Below are positions 20,571 through 50,557 of a stretch of DNA of 64,000 nt, piece by piece (the first letter of the stretch is position 1; every line of letters starts with the position of its first letter). A program made the translations under genes and the position numbers. A model generated the notes under the pieces. That model ran no database searches, was not told the origin of the DNA, and saw only the letters and a list, made by a program, of their open reading frames with translations. The DNA comes from Takakia lepidozioides. Its lineage: Eukaryota; Plantae; Bryophyta. The DNA is taken from contig CM060732.1 of NCBI GenBank assembly GCA_030704615.1, positions 83,018,001 through 83,082,000 on the forward strand, given 5' to 3'.

Positions 20571-20645
20571 TCTCTAGGGATAGAGGATTTGGTGCCTATA
20601 TTGTCTATGTAAAGCTCTCTAATCTTATGTGCGCATTCTTGACAG

Positions 20646-24871: not shown

Positions 24872-25296
24872 TGCCCATTCCGGCTATGACAGTTAGAACA
24901 CACTTGTATAGACGTGGCTTGCCACAAAATTTGCAATAAAATGTTGCATTTCAACATTCCAACTTCACATGACCCTATTTCCGTGCCTCCTAACCCTATT
25001 TCCGTGGACTCACAATGGTCTGCTCATGCTTTTTTTTTTTTCCGCTCATGAAATAGCAGCCCCCGTTCCCAGTACTCTAGCCCAGTTTTCAGTATCTGGT
25101 ACTCCGGTCCAGTTTCCAGCATTCTAGTATTCAAGTCGTGTTCCAATATCTTGTACTCTTGTTCATTGTTATAAAGATCGTCTTGATTCATATTTACTCA
25201 TCATGCATTTGGCCACGCCGACCTTGACTTCTTGTCTAGCATTGTACCTCTAGTTTTATTTTTTGTTTGTGTTCAGTCATGTTCTCGTCTTTGACA

Positions 25297-28200: not shown

Positions 28201-29994
28201 GGTCTGTCCAACCACCCAGCATATTAGTAAGCGCCAAACACCACAAAAACGAATTGCTGCCACGACATTTTTGGTTAAAAATGTATAACCTTTTCTGTTG
28301 CATCCACACAGGATGTGGCTAGACGATGTAGCTTCTCTAATGTCATCGTGGGCTTCAGAGCGCGGGAGTAGTGCTTCCCCACCTCCACCAGAAAGTCGGC
28401 ACCAAGGGCGGGAAAAGCTATGGCCACGTACTTTACCATCCGCGACTTGTACTTTATGCGGGCCTTTGCCTCCGCAGCTTTGAGATACAATTCCAGTGCC
28501 GGGAGGGTTAGTTTCTTCTCCTCTGACTCCATGTAGAACCTCCGCGCATGTGCCAAATCCTACTGAATTTTCGTCTGTCAAGAATGCGCAGATATGATTA
28601 GAAATCCTGGTCAACACTTTTTCTTCTATTGGGGGAGGAGAGACAGATAAGCTGAACAAAACAGTCAGGAGCTTTCCCCGAAATATGTAGTCCACCATGG
28701 CGTCCATGCTCAGCCTATACCAGGTTCTGTTTGCCTTTGCCTCCGACTTGCGCAGCAGGTCGGCACTGAGCGAATTGGCAAACTCTTGCACCCCCTGCTT
28801 CCCGACATCCTTCACTCGGAAGAGCATATGGGACAAGTTGGTGGCAATGAAGGCATTCTCAGTCACCTTGCAATGCCACATTTCCATTAAACAATACAGA
28901 AATAAGAATTTGCAACAAATATGACGATTGGCAATGAAGTGACTGTTTCAAATTCAAAGTTCCAAAGCAAGAGGCATTGTAACTTACGAGTTGATGTCTG
29001 CCATTGCCGCTTTGAGAAGACTGCGATCTTTGGGCCCCGCAACCTTGAGCACAACACACTCCACGACAAAATGCCAATCCAGGTCGTTGGGGTGGGCTTG
29101 GGCTATGTACTCCATCCATGCCAGGAGGCGATGATTGTCGTCCCACACGTAAAACATCTTTCCGGACAAGTGCTGGAAAAGAGGATCAGTAGCAATCAAT
29201 CTCTCGAACTCCTCATTTCGCCTTTGCCAATGGGGACCCCATTTGTCCACCTCATCGGAAGTGTGGGCACGAGAAGCTCCGTGGTCGTTCTCCATGGAAA
29301 CGTAAAACGCAGCAGACCCCATTCGATATCCCTCCCGGAAAGAGAATTTCAGCTTGTCGATATCACCTGGGAGGGCAGGTCTCACCACCTGCAATGAAAC
29401 CAAGTGGCAAAGGGGAATCCGAAGCTTGGCCGGGTACACCGTGCCCCCCAGGACCCTGCCAATGTTGCTGTGGGTTGCCTCCAACATCTTGGCAGCACCC
29501 AACTTCATATCTGCCTCCGACATGACGTCTGTTGCAGGGGGGTTCTCCGGCAGCCCACCCGGACCGCCAAATCCAGCCTGTATGCTCCGGGTTTGGGGCC
29601 TGGGGATGTCCGGGAGGATGTCATCCTGGTCAGAAAGCTCCCTCTCGTCGTCCTCAACATGGTCAACCACCGCCGGAACCACCTCGAGCACTCTCCCCGT
29701 CTCTACTGCCCTCTCCCCGGCTTCACCTCGAACTTCCACAATCCGTGCTCTTTGTGGTGTTGTTTCCCCTCCTCCAGTCTCCACCGTATGGGTAATTTGG
29801 TGGGTTGCTCCCACCCGCGATGGTGTAACCGGTGTGTTACTGCCTGTTTGTGGTGTCTTGGAGGGATCCACCGTCTCTGTGCGTCCCTCGCTTACATGGG
29901 CATCTTTTGTGGCTGGTGACGATAATGCGGAGGCGAGCAACTCAGACCGACGACGAGCAGGTGGATGATAAAGGAACCCTAAGCTTGTTGGCAC
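25297..29994 (-). pseudogene. Cargo gene copy 2: ParB/Srx-like domain, helical region and beta-class MTase fold (3'-truncated after TFIQT)
   Basis: LRIPLCHLVSLQVVRPALPGDIDKLKFSFREGY...FYVWDDNHRLLAW (ParB-like). Downstream exons are inverted homologues of copy 1 (YDMILLDIPNG, LLDDGGC, FEAYCFVK) with the same intron positions. Confidence 0.75.
26800..27680. repeat. Intronic tandem array, ~145-bp unit x ~6, same GGCGCC-core motif
   Basis: (A)CTGGAAAAATGGC-like sequence recurs at about 26851, 26995, 27139, 27285, 27431 and 27578, within intron 26723-27767 of copy 2. Confidence 0.93.
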
Positions 29995-32900
29995 CCGATG
30001 ATTTCAGTTCTTCTCCACTCCATTCACTGCGAGAGGCACAAGAAGAAGCCATAGCAATCATAGTGAAAAGACCCTACACCCTTTTTCTCCAGTTCAACCA
30101 CTGCTTTCCCTTTCCTTGAGGTCTGACCATCCTACTCGCATGCAGCCTCTCCGAAACCAGGTGGCGGCGATGGAGAAGGGCAGCAAAAGGGACGGATCAG
30201 GACCATCAGGCCCAGGAGAGAACCCGACATAGGTTTGTTTCTACACCTTACTTTTGTTTGTGAGAACACTGTCCAGGGTTGTGTCAACAAAACCCTGAAA
30301 CGCGATCTCTATTGAAACACATCCCGCATGCATTTCGGAGCTAGAGAGAGCACAAGGCCATGTTTGAGAGACCTCCAGAACAGGCTTGCGGTGACGCAAG
30401 CCTGATCATGTGGAGCTCTTTGGCAGCTTCAAGTTCCTCCATTGTTGTGAATCTCCTCGGTTGTCTGCTATGAAGGCAGGGCTCCCTCTTACAATGACTG
30501 TGAATAAACACTGAGGTTTTCAGACCTCCATACCAGGCTTGCGTTGACGCAAGCCTGAAATGGAGGCTCTGAAATCCTCTGCAGGAGCCCATGAGTTTTG
30601 TGGCAAAGCTTGTATGGGAGTCGTAATGTGTGCGTAAGATAGGAGAAATGTCTTATGGGAGAGTGCATGTTTGAGGTCCAAAGCATGCTTGCATTGACGC
30701 CCATGGAAACTGGAGGCTGCAAATGCCCCGTTTCCAGGACTTCCGCATTCGGTTTGTGCTTTGGATGTGGGTGCTTGCAAGACCTCCATGTTATGCTTGC
30801 GTTGACGCAAGCCTGATATTGAGGGCTCAAAGGCACCCACATTTCAATTGGAATGCTCACACCTGTATCTCCTATTTCTTGTGGTGAGCAGAAGAAGAGG
30901 AGGAAGGGCAAAGAACTTGTTGTGGCGGCTGCCGTCCAGACAGAAGTGCAGGACACTGATTTGGATTACAAGGGCAGAGCCATCAAGATTATGGCGGGGT
31001 CCAAGGTGAAATCACGACAGGTAATCCGGTCCATGATGGTTATGGAGGCAAACATTATGATACCCCTTTGCAGGATGATTTCAATGCCCGTTGTTTGCCC
31101 TGCCCTGACGGGAGATATCAGGAAGCTCCAGGGAGATTTTGTGCACGGGTATGTGTTTGGAACCCCAATTTTTTACATTTCTGTAGGAGATTCCAATGGG
31201 AACGAGAGAGTGGTTGACGAGGAGATCATGGATAAGTGGGATGACTATTGGAGGGAAGTCAATTTGGAGTTCGAGCAGTATCTGTCCAGGAGTCTCGAGT
31301 TGCAGGTGTATAGTAACAAGATGTTCTTTGTGTGGGACGGAAACCACCACTTGCTTGCACGGATGGAGTACATCGAGTCCATGCATCTAGAGGAGAAAGA
31401 ATGGCACTACTCGGTTGCGGCATGCGTTTCGGATCTGAGGGGGAACATCACCCAGCTACTAACAGCCATGCATGATATCAACAAGTGAGTGTTCTTAATT
31501 CATCACCAGCTTCTGCCTAAACTTCACCTTCATTTCATTGTCATGAGGCCCTTTGTGTCTTTGTTTCACACTGGGTTTGATTTTGCAGGCAGACAGAGTC
31601 TTCCCATGTCACAACAAATTTGGTGCACACACTCTTCAGGATGCAAAAGCTGGGAAGGATGCCATTGTCCAGCTTCAAGACTATTCTGACCTCTGAGGCC
31701 TTCAAGAAATGCGAGACCTCTAAAAGGGCAAAAACATGGTACACACTCACCAGGGATGCGTTCTCGGAATACTTGTACACGGTAAGTCCTGCATTTGAGA
31801 GTTTGTTTTCATTCTAGACCTGCACAAGCTCAGGCCAACGACGCTACCGCGTGAGCGTGTGAGCGTATGCTCACACAATGATGATGTGGCGTGAGCCTAC
31901 GCTCACGTAGCTGACGTGGCGCTGATGCTGACGTGGCATGAGCCTGGTCTAGGTCATGCCACGTCACCACAAAGAAGGTGGGCCTATAACCGTGGGGCCC
32001 CCAACTGCTGATTTCACCACATGAAGGTGAAACGGAGGAAGGATTTCGGGCTTTCCTGGAGTTCAACCTTCTGTTAACAGGAGCTTCATTTCCTAGAACT
32101 GAAATGAACGTTGTGTTAACACGAGGTTGTTTTCCTAGAACTAAAATCAACCTCGTGTTGACACGATGTTGTTTTCTTAGAACTAAAATCAACCTTGTGT
32201 CGGCACAAGGGGGATTTGGAAAACTCCAAGTAAACCTCGTGTTAACACGAGGTTGATTTGATCATCTGTCTATCTGAAGGTAGTTTCTTGTGCTTGCTAA
32301 TGAAAACAGAATGACAAACCAATGCGACAAATGCATTGACCCATGCATAGCAAAGATGTTAGACGACATACATTGAGAGACACTAGACTTGAATAGTCAT
32401 TCCATTACAAGTTGTAGTCAAGGAAAACACAGATTTTGGAGTGTCAAGTGCATGCTTTCTATGGGCTTGTATCATGCTGTAGAAGTGTGTTGACTTCGTT
32501 GAAACTCATAGTGGCTTCGTGAATGAAGAAATCCCACTTTGGATCACAAACCATCCTTCTCAAGAAGACGAAGTAAAGGTGTTTGCACAGTATGAACTTC
32601 CCTTTCTTTCCCAAACTACTTGAAAGCATACCAACAAAATCAGGACAGGTACAATTGGGAAAATTGGAAACAGTGATGTCGTACGTCTTGTCCTGCAGCG
32701 CAGATGCGGATGAGATCATGGGGAAGACCCGACCATACCCTGGATCAGGCACTTCCATTGTTCCCGCAACACGAGCGTGAAGCTTTCTCGCGGACTCGAT
32801 TTTGCCATAGTGTTCTGCGGTTGGAGGGAATCGTCGAACCAGCTTCCCATTCCGTCTGGTTGGCCACAAGTGAGCATCAGGCGGAGGTACCCGTGAACCG

Positions 32901-34462
32901 CTTGTACTTGAAGCACCTTCACGTGTAATGGAATGTCTGGCTAGGGAGAAACCCGCCTCTTCCAGCATTGCGATCACTTGGTGAGTGAGACCTGTGCCCA
33001 TCTTCACAGGCCACACGGTTGGTGGAGTAGGTTTCCTCACCACGAAGGACCTCACTGTCCCACGCACACATCTCCCGCAATCGTCAGCGCAAAACCAGAA
33101 CTTGTGGTTCTTTGCCTCTCCTTGGCCATAAGGGAGAAACAAACCAGTGAATGTAGGAGCTGCAGTGCGTTCTTTCCCTCTGGATATTAATGATGTACAT
33201 TTTTCATGATTGGTGGCCCTGATCGCCGCGCATTTCACACGTGATCCAGCACTTGTGCGTTCTATATGCCAAACCTCGTCCAAGCACATGGACTCTATTA
33301 CATGCGGCACCACGCTCTGGTCTTCAACCATTGTAGTGACAGTGCTTGATGCAGGGGTCCGGTCTGGGGCAGAATGGCCCTCACCTGTGGATGTTCCGCA
33401 ATTCCATCTCTGATCCAAGGGAACACGTGGCGTTGAGAAGTTGACCCTATCCGCCCTATGGGAATCTGCATCCGATCCGGGAGGGGTATCCAATTTCCGT
33501 TTGCAAGACCCGAATCTCTCTTTGCCTTCCAGATGGGGAACTCTTCCCACGAGAAGGGTGCCATCTGCACATATGCTCACTGCCCGCGCTATTTTGCTGG
33601 GATCCCCCGATCTTCTGGCTGCCCGCAACATCAACTCGCTCCTGTCCGGGCCTTTGCCTCCAAGGCCACCCCTCGAGAATGACATGTATCTGGTTTGCTG
33701 CTGCAGAGCACGGATAAGGTCATCGGCCGTAGCCGCATACAAATCTCTTCCCTTTTTGCCGGATTGCTGCAACCAGGCATTGTGCACTATCTCCGCTAGA
33801 TTGCAAGACGGCATGTCCGCCATCTCCTCAATGGACATATGCTGCAAGGCAAAAAAACACAAAGCCAATATTAGGATGGGACCCTGAAAGATATATCCGA
33901 AGCACCCAAAGGAAGGTGAATGCAAACCGCTCACCGTTGTCATGGCCGCTCCCCATTGTCGGTAACGGAAGTGCCAAAATGTGAACCAGTTTTCCAATGC
34001 CCTCATGTTGTCCTCCGATGCCGCTCCAGATGAGTACCACCAGGCACGAATTGTCTGGAACAATGTATTTGCTTCCCCTATAGTTTTGGCTTCTTTGTAC
34101 TGTTTGCACAGTTGATGATGCATACTCTGCATATCTGGCTTAATGTCTGCCTTTGTGTGTTTGTCCAAGGATTGTGTCCAATGGAAAAGACACGTACGTT
34201 GTCTTCCAGACATTGGCACTTTTGGATCTCCCGTCCCGAATACAATGCGGACAGCGTTGAAGTTAGCTTGAGCACTGTCGGCCATGAAACCAACAAAATT
34301 GGGAGATGGGAGACCATTGGAGGCCATAACACGAATGAGAGCTTCCCACATGAGCTGCTGTGAATCTGTGTCCTCTGACTGCATGTCACACACTGCAATT
34401 GTCATGACACGCTGGTACACAGGGTCGTAAACATGACATGCCATTGTGGTCCAGTCTTTAAC

Positions 34463-35185
34463 TGTCGCGGCCCTTTGCCTTGAGGGCAAGGGGGTCGGGA
34501 CACATGAGGGGTTGCAGTGGGGGCAGCGGCAGCGATAGGTATGGGGGGCTGAAGCACCCTTGAGTGCTCAAGGCACCCAAGGAGGCGGAGGCGCTCACTA
34601 GGTGGAGCCCCGCACACCGGGTTGCGGTGGGGGTGGCTCCACAAGGGGTGGTGGTAGCTTAGCGGGACTTAGTGGGGGTGGCATAGGACTCACCATGGGG
34701 GCGGAGACCTCGTGGTGGGAGTCGTGGGGAGTCTTGGGACTCATCACGGTCCATAGGGGCCGTAGTGAGTGGGCCAAGACTCACCGCGACTCATCACCGG
34801 GAGTCGAGGGTTTTCGTGGTGGTTCGCCATAAAATGGCATGGCTGGTTGTGAAACCCCCGCGGACAGCTATAGAAGTATATATAAGGGGAGTAGTGACCC
34901 CGAGAACGGTGCAAGCCCGTTGGTGACCAAAAACTAGTGAGTAAGCGAGCGAGCCGGAAAGCGACCAAAGAGTGGGGAGCTGTTCCGGACTGCCATCTAC
35001 CAAAGGGAATTCTCCTAGTCCCAAATAGGTGGAGGGTTTAGTGGGAAGCAAAGGGGGACCGTTATGTCCCGGTGAGCAGCCGAAGCTCCAAGTTGGCCCA
35101 GGCGGCCAGGTTGGGAGTCAGGCGCGCGCATCAAAGCGAGTAACTATGACTTGAAGGGGAGCTTATCGAAGTGAGGTGCGCGACA
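34463..35185 (+). repeat. 5' LTR
   Basis: TGTCGCGG...GCGCGACA, with TATATAA at ~34877-34885; matches 40680-41390. Confidence 0.97.
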
Positions 35186-35187
35186 CT

Positions 35188-35199
35188 TGGTATCAGAGC
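35188..35199 (+). promoter_or_regulatory. Primer binding site (initiator tRNA-Met)
   Basis: TGGTATCAGAGC, 2 nt after the 5' LTR. Confidence 0.92.
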
Positions 35200-35240
35200 T
35201 TAGAGTTCAGTACGCAATCGTCCTTGGGATTGGCCTCATC

Positions 35241-38200
35241 ATGGGGTCGGGCAAGCCAAAGCGAAAGCGGAACGGCCCAAAAGATGATGATCCTAGTGAG
35301 CCCGATGGGGGCGACGTGTCACCGAAGCGGCCGTTTGAGGAAGCAACGCAGGTTTCTGAAAGCGAGGCCGCTCAAGAGCGGGAGGAATCTGAGGAGTCGG
35401 AGCCCGAGGAATCCGTGAGAGCTCCGACCCACCAACAGATGCCTCCCATGCCGGCAGCCTTTTGGGAAGGGTTGTTGGCGCAGTTTGGCGGGACGTTGAA
35501 AGACGTGTTGAAGGCGGCTAATGCCACTTCCACTAAGGCAAAGTTTAAGGTGAAGCCTAAGGAACCCGGCACCTTCGAGGGCATCCGAAATCAGAAGGCA
35601 CTCAACACCTGGCTCCTGGAGCTAGAGCAGTACTTCCGGGCGGCCAAGTTGAGTGACGAGGATCGGGTGGAAGTGGCTCCCACCTATTTGAGGGGCTATG
35701 CTCAACAATGGTGGCAGAAATGCCTTCACGACCGAGGTCCAAGCCCAGAAACCTTGGACTGGAGTGGGTTCAAGGAATTGATGAAGAGACAGTTTGTGCC
35801 CCTCAATGCGTCCTGGCTTGCCCGGGACAAGATGAGGAATTTGAAGCAAACAGATGACATTCGGGGTATGTCCAGGCTTTCAATGTGCTGTTGCTCGAAG
35901 TCGCGGACATGGCAAAACCAGAAATGGTCTTCAACTTTGTGGCGGGACTGGCCCCATGGGCCAGGCGGAAGTTGGAGGAGAAGCCACCCAAGACTTTGAA
36001 CCAATTGAGAGGGCTGAATGTTTCTCGGATATCCCTAGGGGTGAGAGACAAGGCCGTACGGAGCTGAACCACAAGAAAACCTGGCGGGAAGGTGACTCCT
36101 CCGACGGAAAAGAAGTGGGATAGGCCACGCGGCGACAATGGCATGTGGAAATCAAAGGGAGGGCCTTCACACGTCAAGGCGGCGGCACCCGGTGCTTCGA
36201 AAGGAAAAGCGGGTGGAGCGGCTTATGGCGGACAGAAGGCGACCTTTGATGGAGTGTGTGATTCAATTGCGGGGAGCCCGGGCACATGGCCAAGAAGTGC
36301 ACAAAACCCGACAATTGAACATGACTCGGGCAACCAGGGAGCTGTCGGAAGATACCATCAGTCGCTTGGTGGAAGCGGTGGTCGCCAGGACTTGCAAGGT
36401 AGGCAACTATTCTTGTGAGTTGTATCAGGAAATTGGTGCCCTGCGTAAAGGGAGTCAGTTATTGTTCGTGGATGGATAATATCCGGAACTAACGTGTCGT
36501 TGTTCGTGGACACAGGAGCGTCGCACTCCTTTATGACGCCGGCGGCGGCGCGAAAGTTGGGACTCCCGACAAGTGACGTGGGGGCCTCTATTGAGGTGCG
36601 TTCTGCCAAAGGAGAACCACAGTTGGCGACAAGGTTGGCGTTTGATGTTCCTCTTCAACTGGGAGTTGGGAGGGACGTGAGAACTTCACCATCTGCGAGA
36701 TCGATGGAGTGGATCTCATTTGGGGATGATCTTTTTGAGCAAATCCGGAGCGGTCATAGATGGCCGCAAGAGAGTAGTCACGCTGCCATGTGGGAATGGT
36801 GGCGAGGTTTACGAGTGTCGGAAACGCCCAAATCCGTGGGAGGGCGATAAAACCTTCTGTCAGCAAAGGAGTGGGCCGTGGAGGAGGCACACGAGCCCAA
36901 TTTTTGCTTTACATTAGAGAAGTGTGAAAGGAGAAGGCGATGGGGAGCCGAGCCCAGATTGGATCAAGGGGATTTTGGAGAAAATACCAGGATGTGATGC
37001 CGGAGGATTTACCAAGCGGCTTGCCACCGCGAAGAGGAGTTGACCACAAGATTGAGGTGATATCGGGATCGGAACCGCCTGCCAAGGCGCCCTACCGGTT
37101 GAGCCACAAAGAGTTGGTCGAGCTGAAGACTCAGCTCAAGGATCTAATGTCAAAGGGGGTACATCCGGCCGAGTAAGTCACCTTACGGAGCCCCGGTGCT
37201 ATTGCAGACAAGAAGGATGGACGCTGCGGATGTGTGTCGATTACAGGGCTCTGAATAAGGTGACTATCAAAACCGGTACCCTTTGCCAAGGATGACGACC
37301 TCTTCGATCGGTTGGCAGGAGAGCGAAGTATTTCAGCCGGATCGACTTGCGCTCCGGCTATCATCAAATTCGGGTGGCGGAAGGAGATGAGGAGAAGACC
37401 GCGTGTAGGACAAGGTATGGTTCATATGAGTTCTTGGTGATGCCTTTTGGGCTCACCAATGCACTAGCGACATTTAGCACGCTAATGAACAGCCTTTTCC
37501 AGGAGTGGTTGGATGACTTTGTGATCGTGTACATCGACGACATCTTGGTGTACTCGAAAACAAAGGAAGAACACCTGGAGCACCTAAAAGGGTGTTCCAA
37601 AAATTGCGAGAAGGGAAGCTGTATGCCAAAGCTTCAAAGTGCGAATTCGGGGTCACAGAAGTGGAGTTCCTGGGGCATGTGATTACACAGGATGGGATCA
37701 AAATGGATGACAGAAAGGTGAGGGCGATCTTGGACTTGGGAGCCTCCGACTTCGGTCCCGGGAGTGCGATCCTTCCTAGGATTCGCCTCCTATTACCGGA
37801 AGTATGTGAGAAATTTCGCCAAGATCGCGGGGCCGTTGTCGACCTTCTGTGTAAATCCAAAGAATGGAATACATTTTGTGGCCAAGCTTTTGCTGAATTG
37901 AAGCAGCGGATGGCGGAAGCTCCAGTCTTGAAAATCCCGGAGTTCGATCGTCCATTTGAGATTCATACAGATGCGTCGGACTTCGTGATTGGGGTGTACT
38001 TATGCAAGATGGACGTCCAGTGGCTTACGAAAGTAAGAAACTGAATGAAGTGGAGCGACGGTGGCCGACGCACAAAAAAGATATGAAGGCGGTGGTGCAT
38101 TGCCTCGAGCTTTGGCGCCACTATGTTGGTTCCAACCCAGTGAAGGTGTTCACGGACAATGTCACGGTGAAGTATTTTGCCACGCAGCCCAAGTTGTCCC

Positions 38201-39779
38201 CAAAACAACTTAGGTGGCAAGATACTTTGGCGGTGTTTGACGTGGATATCCAGTACAAACCGGGACGAGACAACGTGGTGGCCGATGCTTTAAGTAGAAA
38301 GCAGCAGCTCTTGTTGGTGTACAAGGGCGAGACGGCGCTCCAAAAGAAGATCCGGAAAGGCTTGCCGGAAGGATGAGCTGGCAAAGTCCGCGATGCAGGA
38401 CTTGAGGATGGGGGGTAAATTGCAGTTCCACTTGCAAAAATGGATTGCTCTGGTATAAGCAAAAACGTCTCTACGTGCCGAAGGGAGGGATCAGAGATAG
38501 CCTCTTGAGAGAATGCCATGATAGCCCGCTTGCGGGCCACGGCGGAGCCAAGCGCACTGGTCACTCTTGAAGAAAGAGTATTTCTGGCCCAAACTGAGGG
38601 AGGAGGCAGAGGAGTATGTCAAGACATGCACCACATGCCAACAAAACCGGAGCGAGTACAAAAAGCAAGCGGGGCTGTTACAACCCTTGCCAATTCCAGA
38701 GGGGACTTGGGATTTCATGACTGCTATGCCGCTGTCAAAAGGATTCGATGCAATCATGGTGGTGGTGGATAGGTTCAGTAAAATGGGCCATTTCATCCCC
38801 ACCAAGGAGACGGCAACGGCGCAGGAGACAGGGGCGACTTTACTTCGCCCACGTCTTAAAACATCATGGAGTCCCGAAGGATATTGTCTCGGACCGCGAT
38901 CCAAAGTTTATGAGTAAATTTTGGAGGGCACTTTGGAAGAAGATGGGGACAAGGCTGAAGATGAGCACCGCCTTCCGACCTACGACCGACGGCCAAACAG
39001 AAAGGGTGAATTCCGTAGTGAAGCAGATCTTGCGGAATTACGTGTCGGCAGACCAAACAGACTGGGTGGAACACTTAGACGCGGCAGAGTTCTGTTATAA
39101 TAACACAGAACACTCCGCAACGGGAGTTTCCCCTTTCGTATTGGTCTATGGAAAAGCACCTCTGGTGCCGACAAGTTGGGCCGCCCAGGACGTTGAGGAA
39201 CCGGCAGTAGCGGCGGTACTGGAAGAACGCGAGCGTTTGTTGAAGCTCGCAAAGTACAATATTGCCAAAGCTAGGAAACGGTATGAAAGGCAGGCGAATC
39301 GGAAGCGGAGGGAAGTGAAGTTTGAGGCAGGCACAGAGGTCTGGTTGAACATCAAGAATTTCCGACTACCTCCGGAAGTGAGTCCGAAGTTCGTACCTCC
39401 GTATGCGGGACCCTTTCGCATTCGGAAGGTTATGAATGAGGATGTGTATGAATTGGAGCTGCCGGCAAACAGTAAGGTGCACCCAGTATTCCATGTATCC
39501 CTTTTGAAGCCTTACTTCAAAGATGAAGCGCGTCCGAATCGGCATCAAGTGTTGCGTCCACCACCTATGCTGTTGGATCATGAAAATGAACCTGAGTACG
39601 AGGTGGAGGCAATACTTAAGTCGAGGAGGTTCAGGAACCGAGAAACGGAGTATCTCGTCAAATGGAAGGGCTATCATCATGTGGAGGCATCTTGGGTGTG
39701 TGCCTCAGAAATGGGAAACGCATCCGAGGCGGTTGCAGCTTTCAAAGGGCGACCTCAAAAGCGGAAGAAGAAGCGTTGA
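35241..39779 (+). pseudogene. gag-pol (Gag, protease, RT, RNase H, integrase, chromodomain), frameshifted as assembled
   Basis: KPKEPGTFEG (gag), [62 protein letters not shown]...YLVKWKGY...SW. Confidence 0.93.
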
Positions 39780-40679
39780 TGGGGACATCAACCTTGGAGC
39801 GTGGGGAGGAAATGCATGCTTAGCCCGGCTTAGCTAGCTCATGAATCCAATTGCAAAAACTTGTATTGTACAAAATTTGCTTTAAATGAAATGTTTCAAA
39901 ATGTTGTGCTTCCTATTTTGTTTGGAATGGCGATGCATGGTATGGTTGGCTAGTGTGTAGAAGGCATGCTACTTACAAAAGCGGGAGAGGTAAATTGGGT
40001 TAATCGTGTGTTTGCGCAGTGCCAAAATCGGGTGACTCCCATCCAAGGGGCAAAGAAACTTGCGCCTTCTTTGGGAGTTCACGTGCTAGTGCGCACCTGG
40101 CGCGTGCGCGTACTATAATTGCGCTACCGAGGGAGTTGTCTTGTAGTGCGGGCTACGCGGAAGCTACGTGCTTCCGTTCACGTACTATAATCGTGTAGCC
40201 TCGGGACGAAGTCGTAGTGCGGCTTCGGCGTGTTCCCGTACCTCAGGCCAACATTCCAAGGCGGACCCAATTGTAGTGATTGGGGCGCACGGTTGGTTCA
40301 AGGTTATCTTCCTAGTCAAAGAGGGTTCCAGGTGAACCCTTGCTCAAGGTGATGCCAAAAGCGGCATCATGAGCGATCGCAAGCAATGTTGTTGCAGTAA
40401 GGCGATTCGATCCTCGGGGAGGATCGTTCCTTGGCCTTGAAGTAGGCCAAGAAGAGTGCACTGGGAGGAGCTGGAGAGGCTCCACCCTTGGCCGGGACTT
40501 GGAGGAAGTCGGCCGAACTAGCTAGTGGAGAGTAGAGTCAAGTGTGGGGTTTGGTTCTTTGCCATGGGACGCCATGGTACGGAAACAAACTCCTTGATGT
40601 GGGACGCCACAACTTGGAAGTTCGTTTCTACAAAATGAACAAGTCGATGAGGACATCGACTCCCTATTGGTAGGGTGTG

Positions 40680-41390
40680 TGTCGCGGCCCTTTGCCTTGA
40701 GGCAGGGGTATGAAGGGGTGCTGTGGTGGGGCAGCGGCAGCGATAGGTATGGGGGGCTGAAGCACCCTTGAGTGCTCAAGGCACCCAAGGAGGCGGAGGC
40801 GCTCACTAGGTGGAGCCCCGCACACCGTGTTGCGGTGGGGGTGGCTCCACAAGGGGTGGTGGTAGCTTAGCGGGACTTAGTGGGGGTGGCATAGGACTCA
40901 CCATGGGGGCGGAGACCTCGTGGGAGTCGTGGGGAGTCTTGGGACTCATCACGGTCCATAGGGGCCGTAGTGAGTGGGCCAAGACTCACCGCGACTCATC
41001 ACCGGGAGTCGAGGGTTTTCGTGGTGGTTCGCCATAAAATGGCATGGCTGGTTGTGAAACCCCCGCGGACAGCTACAGAAGTATATATAAGGGGAGTAGT
41101 GACCCCGAGAACGGTGCAAGCCCGTTGGTGACCAAAAACTAGTGAGTAAGCGAGCGAGCCGGAAAGCGACCAAAGAGTGGGGAGCTGTTCCGGACTGCCA
41201 TCTACCAAAGGGAATTCTCCTAGTCCCAAATAGGTGGAGGGTTTAGTGGGAAGCGAAGGGGGACCGTTATGTCCCGGTGAGCAGCCGAAGCTCCAAGTTG
41301 GCCCGGGTGGCCAGGTTGGGAGTCAGGCGCGCGCATCAAAGCGAGTAACTATGACTTGAAGGGGAGCTTATCGAAGTGAGGTGCGCGACA
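40680..41390 (+). repeat. 3' LTR
   Basis: Matches the 5' LTR and is followed by TSD TTAAC (41391-41395). Confidence 0.97.
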
Positions 41391-43749
41391 TTAACCCTCT
41401 TGATGTGATCGAACATAAGGAAGCAGTTGCCAAGATCGTCACCCTTCTGCATACGTTTAACCAGGCTGACTGTGCTGCCCTCACCTTTTGTGGACATTTT
41501 GAACAGGAACACTTTCCTGGCTCCTTGCCCCGGGAAAACGTTGTCTTGGATGTAGTCGTACATGCTCATTTTCTTCAAATCCATAATATTGTCCATATAA
41601 CCTGGGCTCCCAGAGCCCATTCTTAAAGCGTTCACCTGATTCCTAACGTTTGGAGAAATCAAAGTTGAGAAATGGTCCATAACAGTGTCCAAAGCTGGTC
41701 CCTCCAATTTTCCTCCAACCGAATCCGATGCACATAAAATACGGCTTTCCAGAAAGGACTTGCTCGCCCCCATGGCAATTGCAGATGTGGTTCCAGTTGG
41801 ATTGGTATCCAACTCTTGCCTTATCAGACGCAAGACTGTCTCAACGCTCTCCCTGTAATCCCCCTTGGACACAGGGTGGTTGTGAAAACCGAAATGGACA
41901 CAGGCTCTAGTCAAGGTTTTGAATCGATGCACCACATAGTACATTCTGGCGCCACACATTGTAAGGAGGCAAGGTGGTACCCTACAGAACTTGCACACAA
42001 AAGTGTTACTATATGGTGGTGTCATACCAGGCTTGAATGGATTCTCACTGACACCATCCTATTCGCTTTGGTTTTGCACACCCGACAATGCAAAGTGTTT
42101 GCATTTCATGTTCTCGCATTTCAGGTGCCCATTACAGACTGTTCGCCTGAATATGAGGTTGTTGTGGTTGTGAATATTGGAGGTTTTTGTGCGGCACCAA
42201 GGGTGCCCATCGTGCTTTTTGTCCATTCCTTCCATGAGACTGGAAATGCCCCCCACGCGACCAGGAGGAGGCAGCTCGAAAACAATTTTACCATCAAAAG
42301 ATTCCGGCAAGAATGCCACCCTCTAAACATTGAAAGTGCTCCAGTCAATCCCCCTCAACTCACTCTTGAATCCTGCCATCCCACCCATGGCTTTCAGTTT
42401 AGGAATGACACTGGTGATCTCCTCCACATCTGCTTCCTGATGTGGACATGGCTGATCCACCGGCGGTATTTCACAGGCGTCATCGGAGGATGAGTCTGAA
42501 AGCTCAACTACAGTGTTAACGGTACTTGACTCCTTCTCGACAACCACGGGTGTTTTCTCCTGGGCCACTGATGCTGCCGTGCCAAGAGTAACGAACGATC
42601 CTGCAGACTGTCTCCAAGGAGCACTGAGCACCCTGTATTTGCCTGGAGTCACTCTCCATTGTGTGGTTGGTGCAATATGCGAAGGTTTCTGGAACGAGTA
42701 CTTGAGCAGTTTTCCATTGGCATCGTACACTTCCCTTTCAAGGAATAGAGTTCCATTTTCCAACCGAAACTACGTTGCGAGCACGTGTTCATGCACCACC
42801 GCAAAACCGTCATCTTCCACCTCGTAAGAAAAGGGGACAGGGTGGTCCTCACTGAAGAAGTCCGCGTCAAGGGAGCCCATGGGCTGGGAGGCCATCTGTC
42901 AATATTGCTTCAAAACGCACAGTTCACAGTCCGACGTTGCTTCTGATTGCAGGTTGTACTAGAGTGCAGTTTTTTGGCTATATAGAAGACGTCCTTACAC
43001 ACAATTGCAGGTGTCGCTCCCGCTTGCAGGTCTCCTAGCGCGGTTTGGCACATCATAGAAATGTGTCCCCATGCGAACCAAGTGGATGGTCGTAGAGTGT
43101 CCAAATGCGGAGTGGATAATGTCAGCCCTAATCAAAGAATCCAACTGTTTTCTCACAGGTGCCCCACCAGTGCATTGGACAACCAACTCAGTAAGATTGA
43201 CTGACAGAGCCGCCATTTGCCTGTCATGTCAAAGATTCCAGATGAGATGCCTATTTCCATTCAATTTTAACGGCACCTGCACCACTGTACAACTGTACAT
43301 ACTTCACATTCTTCTGAAACATCCCAAAAGCTATTACTCAACAATGAACTTTTTCGGATGAGAGGTGGACCCGAACGAATTTCGGTGGATGAGAAAAAAA
43401 TGATTTCCGGAGATTTTCATAACGGTTAGATGGGCACGTGTTCGCCATGCATGTGGAATGAGCATGTGGCGCACAGGTCGTTCCGAGCGATCATCTTGGT
43501 GTGGAAGGCCTTGCGGTGAATCCACCGTAGCCCCCTTTTTTCCTTCTTCTCCTTATTGTCCTTGCAACCCTGGATTCTGTAGAGACAGTGACCACATCCC
43601 GAGGGAGAAGAAAACGTCAAAGAATACTTTACTTCACATCAAACAAGCAAAGGGTACGCGCTAAGGAGAGGATGAGGAAGGCGAGACGGAAACTTAGAAT
43701 GGGAGAAGAAACCTCTGGCGGAGATGAGGACGAACGCCAAAACCCGATT

Positions 43750-46365
43750 CTGCAAGGTTGATGTCGACCTCCAAAGTGTATGTTCTGGGCATGAAACGAG
43801 TGCAGATGCTGCACTCGAATCAACCTTGCGTTGACGCAAGGTTGATTCGTGTGCCTTTTTTGTTCATTCCCACCAACCCTAAACGCCTGGCAGCCATGGA
43901 ACTGTTGAATGCTCCCGGTGCATCATCAAGTGCCAAGAAGAAACCATAAGTTGCAATGTGCTTTTCCATCTGATTTTTTTGTTTGTTGAACACCAATCTG
44001 AGAGCTCGGCATCAACCTTGCGTCAATGCAAGGTTGATGTTGACCTCCAAAGTGTATGTTTATGAAGGTGACATGAAGCAGATTCAGCACTTGAATCAAC
44101 CTTGTGTTGACGCGAGGCTGATTTTGATGCCACTCCTAGCATCCGAAGTCTCGCACCAGGAACCGCAAAGTAGGGAAAGTCGATTATCTAAAGCCCCCAA
44201 AAGAACCCTGCGTCAACGCAAAGCATTTAGTGGGTTCAATGGACTGTTGCGGTATGCATTTTAGACTAAGCTACATCCCCATCAATCAACCTTGCGTCAA
44301 CGCAAGGTTGATCCATGGGAGCTCAATCTGTCACTCACAAGGATATTCATTATCTGCAGAAGAAAAGAAAAAAGAAATCCGTGGGGGGTGATGCGGCAGT
44401 GGCAGAAGGTGATGGTGAGGAAGAGTCATTTGAGGGACACTATGAAGACAAGGCCGAAGAGGTTATGGGTGGGCAGAAAGTGAACTCCTCGAAGGTGATT
44501 CTGTCGATGGAGGTTCCCGGCGGAAACCTGGTTATCCCACTATGCAAGATGATCTCCATGCCCGCGGTTCGACCCGCATTGAGGAACAACATCACGAAGT
44601 TGAAGAACGATTTTGTTCACGGCTATGTCAAGGGATCTGCAGTGTTCTATGTATCCACTGTGAACACGAAAGGAGAGGAGTGTCTTGTAACAGAGGACAT
44701 AGAGCAAAGTTGGGATGCATGCTGGCGGGATGTAAACAGGGAGTTTGATGTCCAAAAAGGCCTCCACAAAAGCGTTTATGGGAAAGATGGTTTTTGTCTG
44801 GGATGGGAACCATAGACTGCTTGCCTGGATGGATTACATTTCAAGCTTGCACTCGGACAAGATCGAATGGTACTGGAGCGTGGTTTCCATGGTACTCGAC
44901 CACAAAGGACGTGTCACGCAGCTCTTGACAGCCATGCACGACATAAACAAGTAAGTTACCAACATTGTTCCCGTTCCGATCTGCGTTTGCACAATTAGAA
45001 ATCATCTTATGAGTTGAAGGTTTTTCCAGGTCCAATGAAACCTCCCATGTGACGACAAATCTTTGCCACACTCTATTATGTATCCAGAAGATAGGGCTGA
45101 TGCCACTGGAGTCATTCACGAGCGTGCTCAGTCCTCAGCAGATGAAGAGGTGTGCTGAAAAGAAGACAAGCACATGGTACAGCCTGACAAGAGAGGCTTT
45201 TCTTGACTACATGTACATGGTAAGCTTCTTGACATCTGTTTGATTGTTGTTACTGCAAATTTTATCAAGAAACGGCAGTGTTTGATTCTTTCTCCCTGTA
45301 ATGTATGCAGCAAGAAATAGCAGAAACTGGTTTGAAGGCGAAAGCAGAGTACTATGCTTCCCACACAGAAGAGCAGAGGTCTGCAACTGGGCTTGAGGAC
45401 ATTATGAAATTTGAGATGAACAATCAAAGGAAAAACCTCATGAGTGCGTTCGACAAACAAATCCGCATAGCAGATCCAAGTCTTGGCACGGAATTTTTGG
45501 AACAGGTGAAAGCACATTATGACAAGTATGGCTCCAAGCCAGAGATGACCCAAGAGAAACTGCATCGCCTTTCCATTTCAATGGTGGACAATGCAACCAA
45601 AATCAGGTGGTTGGAGATCTGGAACACTTGCCCCCGGATCACACTGGAGGCCTATATCAGGAGATGGAAGCTCGCTGTCTAGAACAACTGTTTCTTCAGG
45701 GAGTTTGAGAGAGACAAAGGAATCTCCAGGTCCTACGAATTCAAAAACCAGTACAACAACGAGCAAGCAATGAAACGAGTGTTGTACAGGTGTGACCTCC
45801 AAGAAACAAATATGGTACTTGAAGTGTATGTTTCTGTATTCTTGTGTCGTTTTTTCCATGTAAAACTATGAATTTGGAGGTTTTGAGGGAGCTCTGAAGG
45901 CTCTGGACGTGCAGCCGAGCAACATTGCGTTAACGCAAGCTTGTATCCCATTGTTTTGGTTTCACTTTCATGTACCTGGTGTATCCAATGATGTCGTTTT
46001 TCTGCATGTGAAAGGGCAAAAAATGACAGGCAAATCAACCTTGCGTCAACGCAAGGTTGATGAAGGGCCAGGCTATGTAGGTTTTCATGTGTTCTTGGGC
46101 TGTTTTTTTGGTGGTTTCCAGTTCCAATGCTGCCAGGATGAACTTAAAGTCTGTTTGGAGTCTGTTTGAAATGTTGTTTAGAGCTTACACTGTACCAACA
46201 AACAGCCTTGTGTTGACGCAACGTTGTTTGACGGTATTGATTGCTAGAAATGTCCCACAGAAATACCCCGATTTCCATACAATTGTAGGAAAGTTAAGGT
46301 TATCAAATACCATGGACAGGTGTTTCAGCAGAGGAATTCAACCTTGCGTCAATGCAAGGTTGATT
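43750..46365. repeat. Dispersed ~28-30 bp palindromes AATCAACCTTGCGT(TG/CA)ACGCAAGGTTGATT (~10 copies)
   Basis: Copies at about 43818, 44011, 44094, 44205, 44284, 45921, 46033, 46205 and 46337. Variant AACCTCGTGTTAACACGAGGTT copies at 32060-32260. Confidence 0.92.
44315..45789 (+). pseudogene. Cargo gene copy 4 (ParB-like, no MTase seen before the element end). Exons ~44315-44950, 45030-45219, 45311-45789
   Basis: VIPLCKMISMPAVRPAL...FVWDGNHRLLAW...LLTAMHDINK|, with introns at positions shared with copies 2 and 3. One frameshift near 44750. Confidence 0.78.
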
Positions 46366-48419
46366 GGGATTCCATGTTGTGCATGAGATGAGCGGAAGCT
46401 TGCGCACGGGTGTTGTCCCAACAAACAATGTATTCGCCTCTCCATGGGGGTCGCGGAAAAAAAAACGTCGCGGATGGGCTGCTGTGTTCATAGATGATAT
46501 TACTGCAGACTCTGGAAGTAGTTCCTCTGAAACCTCCAATAATTCTTGAGGTTCAAGTACCGAGACTTAATAAAATGTGTTTTGGTTTTGGTTCTATCCC
46601 CAAACTATTTTTCAAGTTCTTCGCGCGTTCCTGTAAGTACTGTTAGGGATTGCCTGGGGTAGGTTTTCAGATTCCGACATTGAAAAATGTTTGTGGGTTG
46701 GAATGAATGAACTACTTTGCAAAAAAAGGGGTTTGTTGTTAATATTCAATTCTCTAGCGGGCGATCTCCTCATTAAAAATTCATGTCCTCGATCCTAAAC
46801 CATCCACAAACCTACCATTGTTCTCGGTCGGAAAGAATATTCATGTGGGGGGGATGACGAGGGATCAAAAAATAAGGACATAGGCGACAACCGATCCGCG
46901 GTAATAGGGGGGGGGGGGGGGGGGGGAGCTCGGAATTAGGGCCTGCACACGTGGATGATTGCTGACGTGGCGTGATCCTAGCCAGGCTCACGCGCAAGCA
47001 TTCCCCGGCTCAGGCTTGTGTTGACGCAAACCTGATTCCCTATGGACTTTCAAATCAGGTTTCTTGTCCGCATTTGGTGACTGACCTCATTTTCACGATG
47101 TCTGTGGGTTGGGTATCAAGAAATTGCTGATGCGGGAGAGCGGGGGAAAGCGGAGTACTACGGCAAAACTCCAGAGAGTGAACGAATTCCGCGGGAAGGT
47201 GGTGACGGCGTTCACCAAATAGCTGCGCATAGCTGATCCTGGTCTTGGCACACAGTTTCTGGAAGAGGTCCGCATTCATTGGAGCAAGACAACCAAGCCA
47301 AAAATGACTCAGGAGAAGCTGCACAGGAGAAGCTGCACAGGCTTGCCATGGCCATGGTGGAACCTGGAGTGAAAGTGCGGTGGCTTCAGATTTGGAACTC
47401 TGAGGCTGTTCTCCGCCAGGAAAATAGTTTTCCCATGGGGGAGAACAACACCACTGGAGTCGTCACCCCTTTCAGTGACCAAGTTTGGGACGTGTGGCTC
47501 CACAAAGCCACATTTTGGGCGCAGGTAAGACTTCCTGCATACATTTGTCCCCTCAATACTTGGATTGAAAGTGTTTGAGCGCATCTGAAGATTCTAACAG
47601 AGTGGTCGAGTCATTCAAGACCTGGATAAGGAGGTGGAAAGGGATCGTTTGGAACCATGCGTTCTTCCAGGAGTTTGCCATGGAAGGTGGCATAACTCGC
47701 TCCAACTTGTTCGATGCGCAGTACAATGGGGAGCAGGTGATGAAGCGAGTCATATACAGGTTTGTCTGTCATGCATTTTGATTTTTGACTGCTGTTTTCA
47801 GTTGCCTATCTTGGGGCTTGCGTTAATGCAAGCCTGCAGACCCCGCTCATCGTGCCTTGCAGTCTTTGCTATGTCTTGGGGCAGGGATCAGGCTTGCATT
47901 GACACAAGCATGAAATGTGGGTGTAATGGAGCTTAACTGAGTGTGGGAGAGGGGTCTGTTGAGAGGCTTTGGAGTACATGGTTTGCAGGTATCCTGAGTG
48001 CACAGACTGTGAGGGAGGGGTCTTCTTTCGGGTCTGCATTAGGCTTGCGTTGACGCAAGCCTGATTAAGGTCAGTCGGCACTGTGGGTGAGGTGATAGAA
48101 AAAGCAATTGTTGGGGGTCAAGGAGGATTTTTCTGACTTGGGATCAGGCTTTCATTGACGCAAGGATGAGTCCAGCATGCACTTAGAGTGTGTTTTGTCC
48201 ATTGTTATTGCGAAGGTATGGTAGCTGCTGTCATGGGTGTCTTTGGCTTGTGTTAATTTTCTGGTTGCTCTCACCGCAGATATATCCACCGAGTGCTTTT
48301 CCCTGGGGGTTTTCTAAGCGCCTACCCATTCTTCATTGACAGCGGGGGCTGCTATTTCATGAGCCATGAGCCATGAGCGGCATGAGCCATGAGCAGACTC
48401 GTAACTGTCGAAAAAATCA

Positions 48420-50390
48420 TAAGCAGTAATTTTTTTCAGAAATGATTGTCCACAGGAATAGGGTACTTATCCGCGGTCATAGGATCCGTGAAAGCAATTG
48501 CGGCACCTTATTTCCACCGGGTACATACAGTCCGATGAGAAAAGCGGCGCATGGTTTCCATGGCACAGATGGAAACTGAAAACGGCTCCATTCATAGAGC
48601 AGCCAATCTTCATCCGTGCAAGTCCCTGTAAGGGGGGAAATCAAATATCTTGTGGAGTATAAGCAATGAAGGGTAGCGTTTGCAAACTCATTCTCATCTC
48701 CATACACAGTCTCCTGAGTGCCAAAATACTGTTCTTGTAGCATCGTCCGCGATTCCTTTGCAAGGATGCCGTGCCGCCGAAATCCAATGGACCCCATTCA
48801 TAAGCAGAATTTGGCACCGCATTCCAATCCACAGTTACAAATGCCAACCGGTTTCTGTTTGGCAGTACGGTAATTATCTGGTTTCCCTTGGAGCGAGGCC
48901 TATGAGTTGATGCAGGTCCACATCTTCTCAGAACTGGGACGCCACTCTTACGGGTCCACTTGGCAATTCCCGCCTCTGTGTTTTTCCTTTGCTGGCAAGG
49001 ACCACCACACAACCTTTGTCATCCAATACCATGCAGGCTAGCCCAAACCCTTTCTCCAAAAGTCCTCAGAAATACTTGCTCCAAGAGGGCACAATATACA
49101 GTCCTTCCAGAGGCTCTCCATCTGGAATATCCAAAGATGATCAAATCACATGACCAGTCGGTCCGTTTTCCACGCCTCATGCAATTCTTCCCTTCACTTG
49201 TCATTGCAAAGAAATCCATCATGGCTACAAATCCTGGAGTGTCTACAGGCTTTCAGGCCTTCCATTTGCTTGATGTGTGCTAACTTGGCGGCCGGCCGGC
49301 CATCCAATGCCCTCAAAAAACTCTCATTCACACACTGAATCACTGTTTTTGGCTCCAACTTTGGCCTGCCCTTCATTTCCACTAGCTCGCACGGGTGCCC
49401 CCGGGAGGTTGAAGAGTGTCTTCTTTGCTGAGCCAGTTTTCACAGCTTTCATAGTAAGAGGGGTTAGAGGGGATTTGGCTGGCCACCGAACACCGCATCA
49501 TCCTTCAGCATTTTTTTGAATTCCGTGTTGCGAGTGTGGCAGTGGGGATCCTAGGCTGCTAACTCTTCTGCTGTCGGGCATGCGATCCACCTTCCTCATT
49601 CTCAATGGAAACATAGAAGGCGGCAGACCCCAGCCAATAGCCTTCTTGGAATGCAAACTTCATCTTATCCACATCCCTTGCGAGAGCAAGCCTCACTATC
49701 AGGAGGGAGACCATTCGACAGAGTGGAATTCGCAGTGTGCAAGGGAAGACCTTGGTCCTAAGAACTCTGCCAATGCTGCTGTGAGTCTCCTCCACCATTT
49801 GATTCTCTGCACTATGAAAATCCTCCTACGACATTTTTGGGGGTGGGAGAAGGGGCTGTTCAGATGGACCACCCAGAGCCGTGCCTGTATTCTTGGGAAT
49901 GTAGCCGGGCAGATCATGTGGGAGAATGTAGTCGTCCATACCTCCCCTATTGTCACGAAAGTCCTAATCTAGGTAGGAGAAGTCGAGCTCCCCATGTTAA
50001 GAAACAACACCTTCATCCGCTGAAAGATCGACCAGGACAAGAGTGTTAGAGATCGTCGTCGAAGCAGCTGCCTGAGCTTCTGCAGAGTTGCCCCCGGTTT
50101 CCTTCTGAAACTCCTGCAAGAACTGAGCTTCAACTGGTGGAGGGGTTTTGCTGGTGACTGCTCTGCCCTTGCTTTCGCCCCCTTCTGCTTCTTACTCTTT
50201 GCAAGGGAAGGGGACTCCTCCGTTCTCGTCCGATTCTCGGTGCCGAATTTCCATCCGGGGGTAGTAATGTGACGCCCGGGTGTCGGCTTCTCCCCTTCAG
50301 CCGACATCATCCGGACGGCCCCCCACTTTCTGACTGCATACCGTTGGCAGTTATTGCGCAAAGACCAGGGGCCGCATTCCGGAGACAAGG
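48420..50390 (-). pseudogene. Cargo gene copy 5, deleted: ParB N-part joined to the MTase region
   Basis: LRIPLCRMVSLLIVRLALARDVDKMKFAFQEGY; GRPKLEPKTVIQCVNES; TGTGATTTGATCATCTTTGGATATTCCAGATGG reads CDLII-LDIPDG across a frameshift. Confidence 0.7.
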
Positions 50391-50557
50391 TTCATTAACA
50401 CTCTGACGGTGGATTTTTGAGATAGTTGGCTCCCTGGTTTGGATCAGGCTTCGTCGCACGGACAAATCGGCACTGCATTCCTTCCCATCGCTGCATCCCC
50501 CTTCTACCAGGGAGCTTGCCCGCACGCCATCCTGGCTGTCTTGTGTGCACATCTCCC

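Follow-up and report, generated by a model that had tools for sequence, protein, structure and literature searches.

A subfamily-specific palindrome that tracks a predicted ParB-fold cargo gene, and not the transposase, in Mutator-like elements of the moss Takakia lepidozioides

A 64,000-nucleotide stretch of the Takakia lepidozioides genome (assembly GCA_030704615.1, contig CM060732.1, positions 83,018,001 to 83,082,000 of the forward strand; hereafter the window) contains two nested DNA transposons, an outer element A and an inner element B. In both elements, a transposase gene lies head-to-head with an intron-bearing cargo gene, and short palindromes are found around the cargo gene, whose product is predicted to have a ParB/Sulfiredoxin (Srx) fold. 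A preliminary description of this DNA had proposed the nesting, which is borne out by the target duplication that flanks B, and a code by which each transposon subfamily recognizes its own palindrome. The features are collected in Table 1.

Table 1. Features of elements A and B in the window (positions count from the first letter of the window)
Position	Strand	Feature	Basis or remark
29941..31835	+	Left piece of Mutator-like outer element A, which has lost its transposase side: upstream region, cargo exons, start of next intron	blastn to A-type loci L021-L028 starts at 29941, breaks at 31793
30381..30404	.	A-type palindrome, arm CAGGCTTG-CG, spacer GTGA	1 mismatch
30534..30557	.	A-type palindrome	exact match
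30792..30815	.	A-type palindrome ~200 bp 5' of ParB-fold exon; position common to most subfamilies	
31012..31485	+	A cargo, ParB/Srx-fold exon	tblastn; fold via homologue alignment
31587..31784	+	A cargo, next exon	
31827..31835	.	Left copy of 9-bp target-site duplication of B	8/9 match to right copy
31836..47006	.	Nested element B (lineage B1), Mutator-like without terminal inverted repeats, within intron of A's cargo gene	
31848..31945	.	Short CGTGAGC-type repeats clustered at left terminus, from ~12 bp inside it	common to all subfamilies examined
32063..32259	.	Variant B-like palindromes, TG/CA replacing inner CG, 42-bp x 4.7 array past transposase 3' end	
32462..34462	-	B transposase, C-terminal part with SWIM finger	SWIM E 7.9e-4, just below cut-off
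34463..41390	+	Gypsy-type long terminal repeat (LTR) retrotransposon inside B transposase gene	ends TG...CA, flanked by 5-bp target duplication
41393..42895	-	B transposase, N-terminal part	GCM/FAR1-like features
43651..43764	+	What is left of first exon of B cargo	truncated by ~420-bp deletion ending at palindrome
43819..44312	.	B-type cluster: 43819, 44011, 44095, weak 44201, 44285	predicted first intron of cargo gene
44486..45799	+	B cargo, ParB/Srx-fold exon and following exons	ParB/Srx-fold exon frameshifted in this copy
45918..46364	.	B-type cluster: 45918, 46034, 46201, 46337	large intron of B cargo
46966..47006	.	CGTGAGC-type repeats at right terminus, with end of B	
47007..47015	.	Right copy of target duplication	overlaps first 5 bases of A-type palindrome 47011
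47011..47034	.	A-type palindrome in A's cargo intron	locus L023 has same site uninterrupted
47117..47760	+	A cargo middle exons (47117-47527 and 47611-47760)	
47813..48168	.	A-type cluster: 47813, 47889, 48040, 48145	A's large intron

Every palindrome position previously named was recovered within 1-2 bases, for the outer type, the inner type and the variant array alike. Compared with the A-type 24-mer, the outer sites carry few mismatches (30381, one; 30792, two; 47011, two; 47813, four; 47889, three; 48040, one; 48145, four; weak copy at 30274, five), and 30534 is the sole exact A-type site in the window. The B-type 28-mer is exact at 43819, 44285, and 46034, with one mismatch at 44011, three at 44095, six at 45918, five at 46201, two at 46337, and eight at the weak site 44201. 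Many of the mismatches at non-exact sites are CG to TG/CA changes. The variant palindrome is exact at 32233-32254. Between 30300 and 48200, 12 sites of the form arm-CG-N4-CG-arm are present, against a mean of 0.5 (maximum 2) in 20 dinucleotide-token shuffles. The whole genome (325.6 Mb) holds 553 exact inner-type 22-mers and 64 exact outer-type sites, and the reversed controls gave none. The palindromes are real and exceed chance expectation.

To place the window in its family, three exon queries were used, which returned about 3,700 first-look candidates each, of which 150 were scored. From these lists 74 loci of this genome were drawn, picked for spread rather than at random, and site classes were assigned from de novo palindrome scans of each locus. 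About nine cargo subfamilies were distinguished, with a distinct site for each cargo clade; 71 of the 74 loci could be assigned to a site class, and the other three had fewer than two sites. The half-sites are CAGGCTTG-CG (A), ATGCTTG-CG (A2), CAACCTTG-CG (B), AACTGAGTG-CG (F), TTAAGRYRT-CG (G), AATTGCGTG-CG (H), AACAGTGTG-CG (I), TGGAAATT-CG (C), and AAGAGTGTG-CG (K; one locus with two sites). Loci L062 and L065 were classed by hand to their nearest sites, as a second array sits further upstream; in L062 this extra array, 3500-4000 bp upstream of the ParB exon, reads arm-CG-GTGC-CG-arm with the arm ACGGAAATG.

All sampled subfamilies share one grammar, arm-CG-N4-CG-arm, with fixed spacing. 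Of 620 arm pairs, 612 are separated by exactly 8 bp, and CG occupies the inner dinucleotide of 1069 among 1224 half-sites when the search did not demand it; these counts, like the 691 sites below, include near-identical copies and hence are not independent. The GTYRAC centre proposed earlier does not hold as the conserved element: only 387 of 691 sites are compatible with it, the F and C spacers being GTGG and GCGC, and the invariant is CG-N4-CG. A HincII-like methylase target at GTYRAC was ruled out by its absence from subfamilies F and C. A GTCGAC centre decayed by CpG loss is not a general explanation either, since TCGA spacers occur in 4 of 691 sites and other spacers vary freely.

The sites avoid coding sequence, as had been noted for the window, and none of the 691 falls in a protein-matching stretch (247 expected). 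Both arms change together from one subfamily to the next, and a hybrid with one A-type and one B-type arm occurs once genome-wide. In all nine loci with both an upstream and an intronic cluster, the flanks of the two are only about 30% alike, so that one word is held in unrelated places. Different subfamilies have their sites at the same positions, near -200 and +1600 to +1850. In A, B, and F the spacers occur in mixed orientation, which is what binding of double-stranded DNA would lead one to expect. Arrays of 10-50 sites are found in the most amplified lineages C, G, and I, and in these three some arrays are tandem repeats (flank identity 0.5-0.66). Longer fold-back extensions were seen at single sites in L073 and L077.

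The preliminary description had suggested that site and cargo protein co-evolve, and a motif scan for each subfamily agrees with this. On a ParB-exon tree of 74 loci, the nine site classes require eight changes, the minimum possible. The transposase was compared by a tree of 45 loci and the cargo at 33 loci from nine lineages. The transposase tree splits B, placing B1 with H (support 100) and B2 with A (98), and the termini group in the same way. The cargo tree pairs B1 with B2 as its sister (100) and F with H (100). Identities follow this pattern: B1 and B2 agree at 9/9 site positions and at 75-86% of residues in the cargo parts, against 58% in the transposase; B1 and H share 68-71% of the transposase, with a site match of 3/9 and cargo identities of 49-58%; F and H share 7/9 of the site and 65-81% of the cargo, with 54-55% in the transposase. 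In approximately unbiased (AU) tests, for which the group B1+B2 had been fixed beforehand from the sites, a B1+B2 clade was rejected for the transposase (p 1e-43), and the groupings B1+H (8e-77) and B2+A (2e-6) were rejected for the cargo. Across 28 lineage pairs (C omitted), the correlation of site similarity with protein identity has a rho of 0.86 when the ParB exon or one middle exon is compared, of 0.52-0.72 with the other cargo parts, and of 0.48 (p 0.03) with the transposase. Synonymous sites between B1 and B2 are saturated (synonymous difference pS 0.79, nonsynonymous pN 0.09), yet the 22-mer is identical; their site-bearing introns gave no alignment of 45 bp or more. At the level of sequence, these comparisons show that the site tracks the cargo and not the transposase through an apparent exchange of modules.

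An independent family of miniature inverted-repeat transposable elements (MITEs), considered at the outset as a source of the palindromes, is not supported by the first 15 of the 553 exact B sites. Among these, 13 adjoin cargo exons and the other two lie in a single 1.5-kb non-autonomous deletion derivative (L146, 750-2272), which has kept its parent's termini, intron array, and an exon remnant.

The cargo protein consists of a ParB/Srx-fold domain, a helical middle part, and a beta-class methyltransferase-like domain. Among named proteins, P0001 and P0008 of Ceratodon are closest to it, and the Takakia exons match P0001 by tblastn. The earlier proposal of a ParB domain is supported, for the N-terminal part, by predicted structure, on which the assignment rests since sequence searches gave no ParB match. 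A model of the homologue P0009, built on a 93-row alignment, reached a predicted local distance difference test score (pLDDT) of 90+ over the domain; a single-sequence model of P0001 (pLDDT 35) was discarded. The top ten Foldseek hits of the P0009 model were all Noc, Srx, KorB, or PadC structures (best E 5e-3, probability 0.97). The top seven hits of a VIA structural search were likewise all of the ParB/Srx fold (Z 6.0-7.2), the best being KorB (Z 7.2, root-mean-square deviation 2.6, 94 aligned). The Box II GxxR motif is present as DGNHR, which is the majority form in all nine site classes; D, N, and H are invariant in alignment A1, and G and R nearly so. The helical part after residue 242 has a pLDDT of 55-85 and no clear structural match, and an atlas search of the cargo middle region gave nothing at or above 0.9. 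A partition role of the ParB-parS kind finds no support: in six frames of a complete young B element there is no ParA-type Walker A and no ParA gene, and the cargo has no ParA-binding motif. Two other matches in that element, a generic Walker-like one and an LGRGL one, fall within an intron and within the transposase region, respectively; the cargo exons have neither. This is not a ParABS system.

The Pfam domain N6_N4_Mtase (PF01555) is above cut-off in P0001 and P0008 (E 4.9e-7 and 1.9e-8), with motif IV preceding motif I; Takakia exons searched one by one gave no match to it. The nearest solved structures of this domain are the beta-class enzymes DpnA and CcrM (E 0.005 and 0.07). The canonical motif IV is [DNS]PP[YFW]. 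The Ceratodon homologues have DTPF and DQPY, which keep the aromatic residue, and the Takakia copies read in all subfamilies have DIPD in 44 of 46 cases (one DSPD, one with a stop), without the terminal aromatic residue and with the SAM-motif region kept. Active and altered versions of the methyltransferase may therefore coexist across mosses, judging from these motifs. Purifying selection acts on the whole cargo, the methyltransferase-like domain included. A weak hint of Pfam DndB was found in 2 of 93 members (E 0.059). No run recorded as RNA was listed for the element. In runs presumed to be RNA, two contigs join across GT..AG gaps in the methyltransferase part of a related copy, which weakly suggests splicing of transcripts; two such runs cover 13 and 9 of 30 element bins, and the bins left uncovered carry no information.

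The carrier is called Mutator-like because its SWIM finger falls just under the Pfam cut-off (19.3 bits against 19.6) and because the transposase shows GCM-, FAR1-, MULE-, and ZSWIM RNaseH-like atlas features (0.80-0.91, low recognition score); no Pfam MULE match was obtained for the transposase. Among seven copies with both ends visible, target duplications are 9 bp in six and 8 bp in one. Mutator-like elements (MULEs) make duplications of 8-11 bp, and forms without terminal inverted repeats (non-TIR) have been described (PMC6446971, in the parts consulted). The ends are dissimilar and lack long TIRs; the inverted repeats that they do have, CGTGAGC/CATGAGC, are short and lie some 12 bp in from either end, which fits the non-TIR type. 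These repeats, a motif different from the palindromes and shared across subfamilies, are likely the transposase sites.

The co-variation of site and cargo makes the cargo protein the most probable reader, and we consider it likely that it binds the palindromes. The constant spacing, the variable spacer sequence, the symmetry of the arms, and the mixed orientation suggest a dimer on double-stranded DNA. As the outcome of such binding we favour, at about even odds, a self-recognition comparable to that by the Arabidopsis protein VANC: the predicted ParB-fold dimer would keep its own subfamily active against host silencing. In this mechanism a homodimer would read two half-sites, the outer 7-9 bp of the arms would set subfamily specificity, and nucleotide binding by the ParB fold would gate loading or release. 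Clusters near the divergent promoter region and in introns would concentrate the protein there. The methyltransferase-like domain would more likely read, flip, or shield bases than write a methyl mark, since the usual aromatic catalytic residue is missing in Takakia copies. The sign of the effect, activation and not damping, is taken from the VANC analogy. A more elaborate version, which we offer as doubtful, is that a nucleotide-gated ParB clamp forms a swappable self/non-self module: it would load at its own CG-N4-CG palindrome and spread over the element, a non-canonical methyltransferase-fold domain would shield or re-mark the DNA, and the cassette would pass from one transposase backbone to another, which would provide a single genome with about nine protein-site pairs.

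Several results weigh against binding and self-recognition by the cargo protein. Most sites lie in introns and thus inside the cargo module, so that a swap carries them along whoever binds them, and linkage alone makes them travel with the cargo. The arrays past the transposase 3' end are the only unlinked test: they are of cargo type, in favour of the cargo reading, in 6 of 16 loci (B1 2/2, G 2/2, C 1/1, and F 1/1, the last with one site) and absent in 10 (H 0/4, A 0/3, B2 0/3). The B1 array is B-like beside an H-like transposase, but in a variant form with TG/CA at the inner CG. A parsimony count of changes tied at 5 against 5 for cargo and transposase; as it did not discriminate, it was replaced by the identity tables and AU tests. 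The arms of A and B agree at 7/9 positions while their cargo is only 49-60% identical, B grouping with G. A column-pattern scan for residues that track the site found no column in four cargo parts and one in each of two. In G and I, the spacers of the tandem upstream arrays are strongly biased to one orientation. As for the fold, its scores are modest (Foldseek E 5e-3), neither the window exons nor the homologues had a ParB match in Pfam, PDB sequences searched with a profile returned only chance matches, and no helix-turn-helix (HTH) of the ParB kind was matched, the VIA alignments to ParB-fold chains ending at residue 242. An accessory activator is also not required, since transposases alone can activate their own family, as AtMu1 does for cognate copies (bioRxiv 10.64898/2026.08.24.746577, parts consulted). 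Methylation decay gave no sign of protection. The elements are clearly targets of 5-methylcytosine (CG and CHG transitions about 5%, A/T 0.3%), and in 20 old B copies CG transitions amount to 6.4% in palindromes, 5.1-6.1% at 13-2000 bp, and 3.9% beyond 2 kb, with columns under depth 8 and lineage-split columns dropped. Transient activity would leave no such trace.

In the variant B1 array a CG is also displaced within the arm; the changes mirror each other in the two arms and persist in the young copies L041 and L049. It is speculation that this TG/CA array mimics a methylated site.

An alternative that uses all of the recognition evidence equally well is that the cargo is an operator-type auto-repressor or copy-number limiter, comparable to KorB or DndB, which damps its own and the transposase promoter. 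The best VIA match, the RK2 repressor KorB, speaks for it, though it ties within 1 Z with other ParB/Srx proteins and its repressor role is known here from a PDB title, the mechanism being general background. The DndB hint in 2 of 93 members, the one site that most subfamilies have some 200 bp ahead of the ParB exon, and the missing demethylation footprint in 20 old B copies point the same way, whereas arrays of 10-50 sites in C, G, and I and rapid turnover of specificity would fit an arms race better. We regard repression as unlikely, if worth keeping in view. The cargo may instead be an active N4C/N6A methyltransferase, which the palindromes would guide and which would put a self mark on its own element, as proposed for algal elements (PMC12477816, parts consulted). 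The N6_N4_Mtase matches with DTPF and DQPY in Ceratodon, the DpnA and CcrM neighbours, and the purifying selection and retained SAM-motif region all suit this idea. Loss of the motif IV aromatic residue in 44 of 46 Takakia copies, set against the canonical form, argues otherwise, and a writing role is improbable. The window copy of B, having lost its methyltransferase exons, carries no information on function.

The palindromes may also have no element-encoded reader and be hairpin or cruciform by-products homogenized by template switching and tandem duplication, or else sites for a host factor or RNA processing. Tandem arrays in G, I, and C (flank identity 0.5-0.66), deletions that end at palindromes, the fold-back extensions in L073 and L077, and linkage, which accounts for co-travel with the cargo, are consistent with this. 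A fixed 8-bp core with CG kept, although CG decays about 15 times as fast as A/T sites do, the recurrence of one word among unrelated flanks, and identity held across saturated divergence make it quite improbable, and a host factor would need no subfamily-specific arms. The transposase, with its GCM/WRKY-like N-terminus, would be another candidate reader, for which the palindromes would be extra subterminal or enhancer sites. GCM/FAR1-like features (0.91, a weak recognition score), the correlation of site similarity with transposase identity (rho 0.48, p 0.03), and the AtMu1 precedent (bioRxiv 10.64898/2026.08.24.746577, parts consulted) favour it. On the other hand, B1 and B2 have the same site although their transposases are 58% identical and not sisters, the sites of B1 and H differ in spite of sister transposases, the termini already hold a separate shared motif that follows the transposase, and most sites lie kilobases from the element ends. 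Binding by the transposase is accordingly very unlikely.

Cargo-mediated self-recognition has its closest functional parallel in the Arabidopsis VANDAL/VANC system. According to the parts of PMC5735166 consulted, the introns and upstream regions of non-TIR Mutator elements contain family-specific motifs to which VANC binds, and VANC demethylates these elements. The moss elements share the non-TIR Mutator-like carrier, the accessory gene, and motifs in introns and upstream regions that often form tandem arrays and turn over with the accessory protein; the hallmark of the system, subfamily-specific non-coding motifs that co-vary with the accessory protein, is present. VANC motifs, however, are 8-9 bp long, non-palindromic, and in one orientation, whereas those described here are 22-26-bp palindromes with a fixed CG-N4-CG core. 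The accessory protein here has a ParB/Srx fold and a methyltransferase-like domain, and VANC binding and demethylation are experimental, whereas the moss cargo is known from sequence and predicted structure.

Similar domain combinations occur in algal transposons. Sola1-1_Ec32 of Ectocarpus has an accessory gene with ParB-like and N4C/N6A methyltransferase domains, for which self-binding and self-modification were proposed (PMC12477816, parts consulted). Domain order is the same, length is similar (1104 aa against 1147 aa in the Ceratodon homologue), and the gene is on the strand opposite to the transposase. Superfamily and host differ, the main text has no mention of 'palindrom', and the parts covered describe no subfamily code; the likeness is by description. 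PAG3 of red-algal Plavaka elements is a ParB-like accessory gene with adjacent inverted-repeat arrays across families and proposed self-binding (bioRxiv 10.1101/2025.02.11.637652, parts consulted), and there, too, accessory genes move between transposon types. Unlike the moss cargo, PAG3 is fused to a 2-oxoglutarate (2OG)-oxygenase, the methylase is a separate gene, the carrier is EnSpm-type, and no test of site against protein phylogeny appears in the parts covered. The bacterial proteins ParB, Noc, and KorB share the ParB/Srx fold with its GxxR box and have palindromic sites near their gene, namely parS, the Noc-binding site (NBS), and an operator (PMC12704722, parts consulted); the moss system differs by having no ParA, no ParA-binding motif, no matched HTH, and an intron-bearing eukaryotic gene in a DNA transposon. 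The same survey, in those parts, describes ParB-N6/N4-methyltransferase fusions as common in phages and nucleotide use of ParB-like proteins as not predictable from sequence. ParB-linked adenine methylases are known from phages and chlorophytes (PMC4738411, parts consulted). The literature search, with subscription journals and supplements outside its scope, found no land-plant Mutator with a ParB-methyltransferase cargo and no subfamily-specific palindromes; the Bostrychia and Ectocarpus supplements may detail repeats.

Other features of the window add to its history. The LTR retrotransposon in the B transposase gene has LTR stretches that are 99-100% identical, frameshifts in its coding region, and no palindrome sites inside. 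A 2.25-kb deletion right after the last B palindrome (46337) removed the methyltransferase-like exons, and internal deletions end at palindromes at 43755 and 46363-46392. Element B landed in the outer arm of one of A's own palindromes (47007-47015), a single case. Element A is cut off at about 48342, where a C-like element (48343-52152) in reverse orientation interrupts it; this is heavily deleted, keeps both termini and a terminal array (51500-51920), and has no matching target duplication. Two opposed subfamily C cargo copies (20697-25070 on the plus strand, 25293-29940 on the minus strand) carry GCGC-spacer palindrome arrays in the large intron, at 21556-22318 (95-bp period) and 26833-27675 (146-bp period). 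Subfamily C, with at least 150 copies at 92% exon identity or more and many identical scores, looks recently active. Tandem arrays of 90, 161, 77, and 82 bp occupy 59011-61449. By eye, the segment 52150-52870, which has no Pfam match, is presumably a CACTA-like transposase fragment, and 19686-20573 presumably a non-LTR reverse transcriptase fragment.

The idea of self-recognition is known from the algal elements, where it was published as a hypothesis; the code across multiple subfamilies and the evidence from module swaps are new. With about nine natural protein-site pairs that follow one grammar in reshuffled cargo and transposase lineages, the algal hypothesis becomes directly testable. If the predicted binding is true, these elements would have a second, independently evolved self-recognition system, derived from a bacterial or phage ParB-methyltransferase module, and the subfamilies would provide a set of orthogonal DNA-binding specificities.

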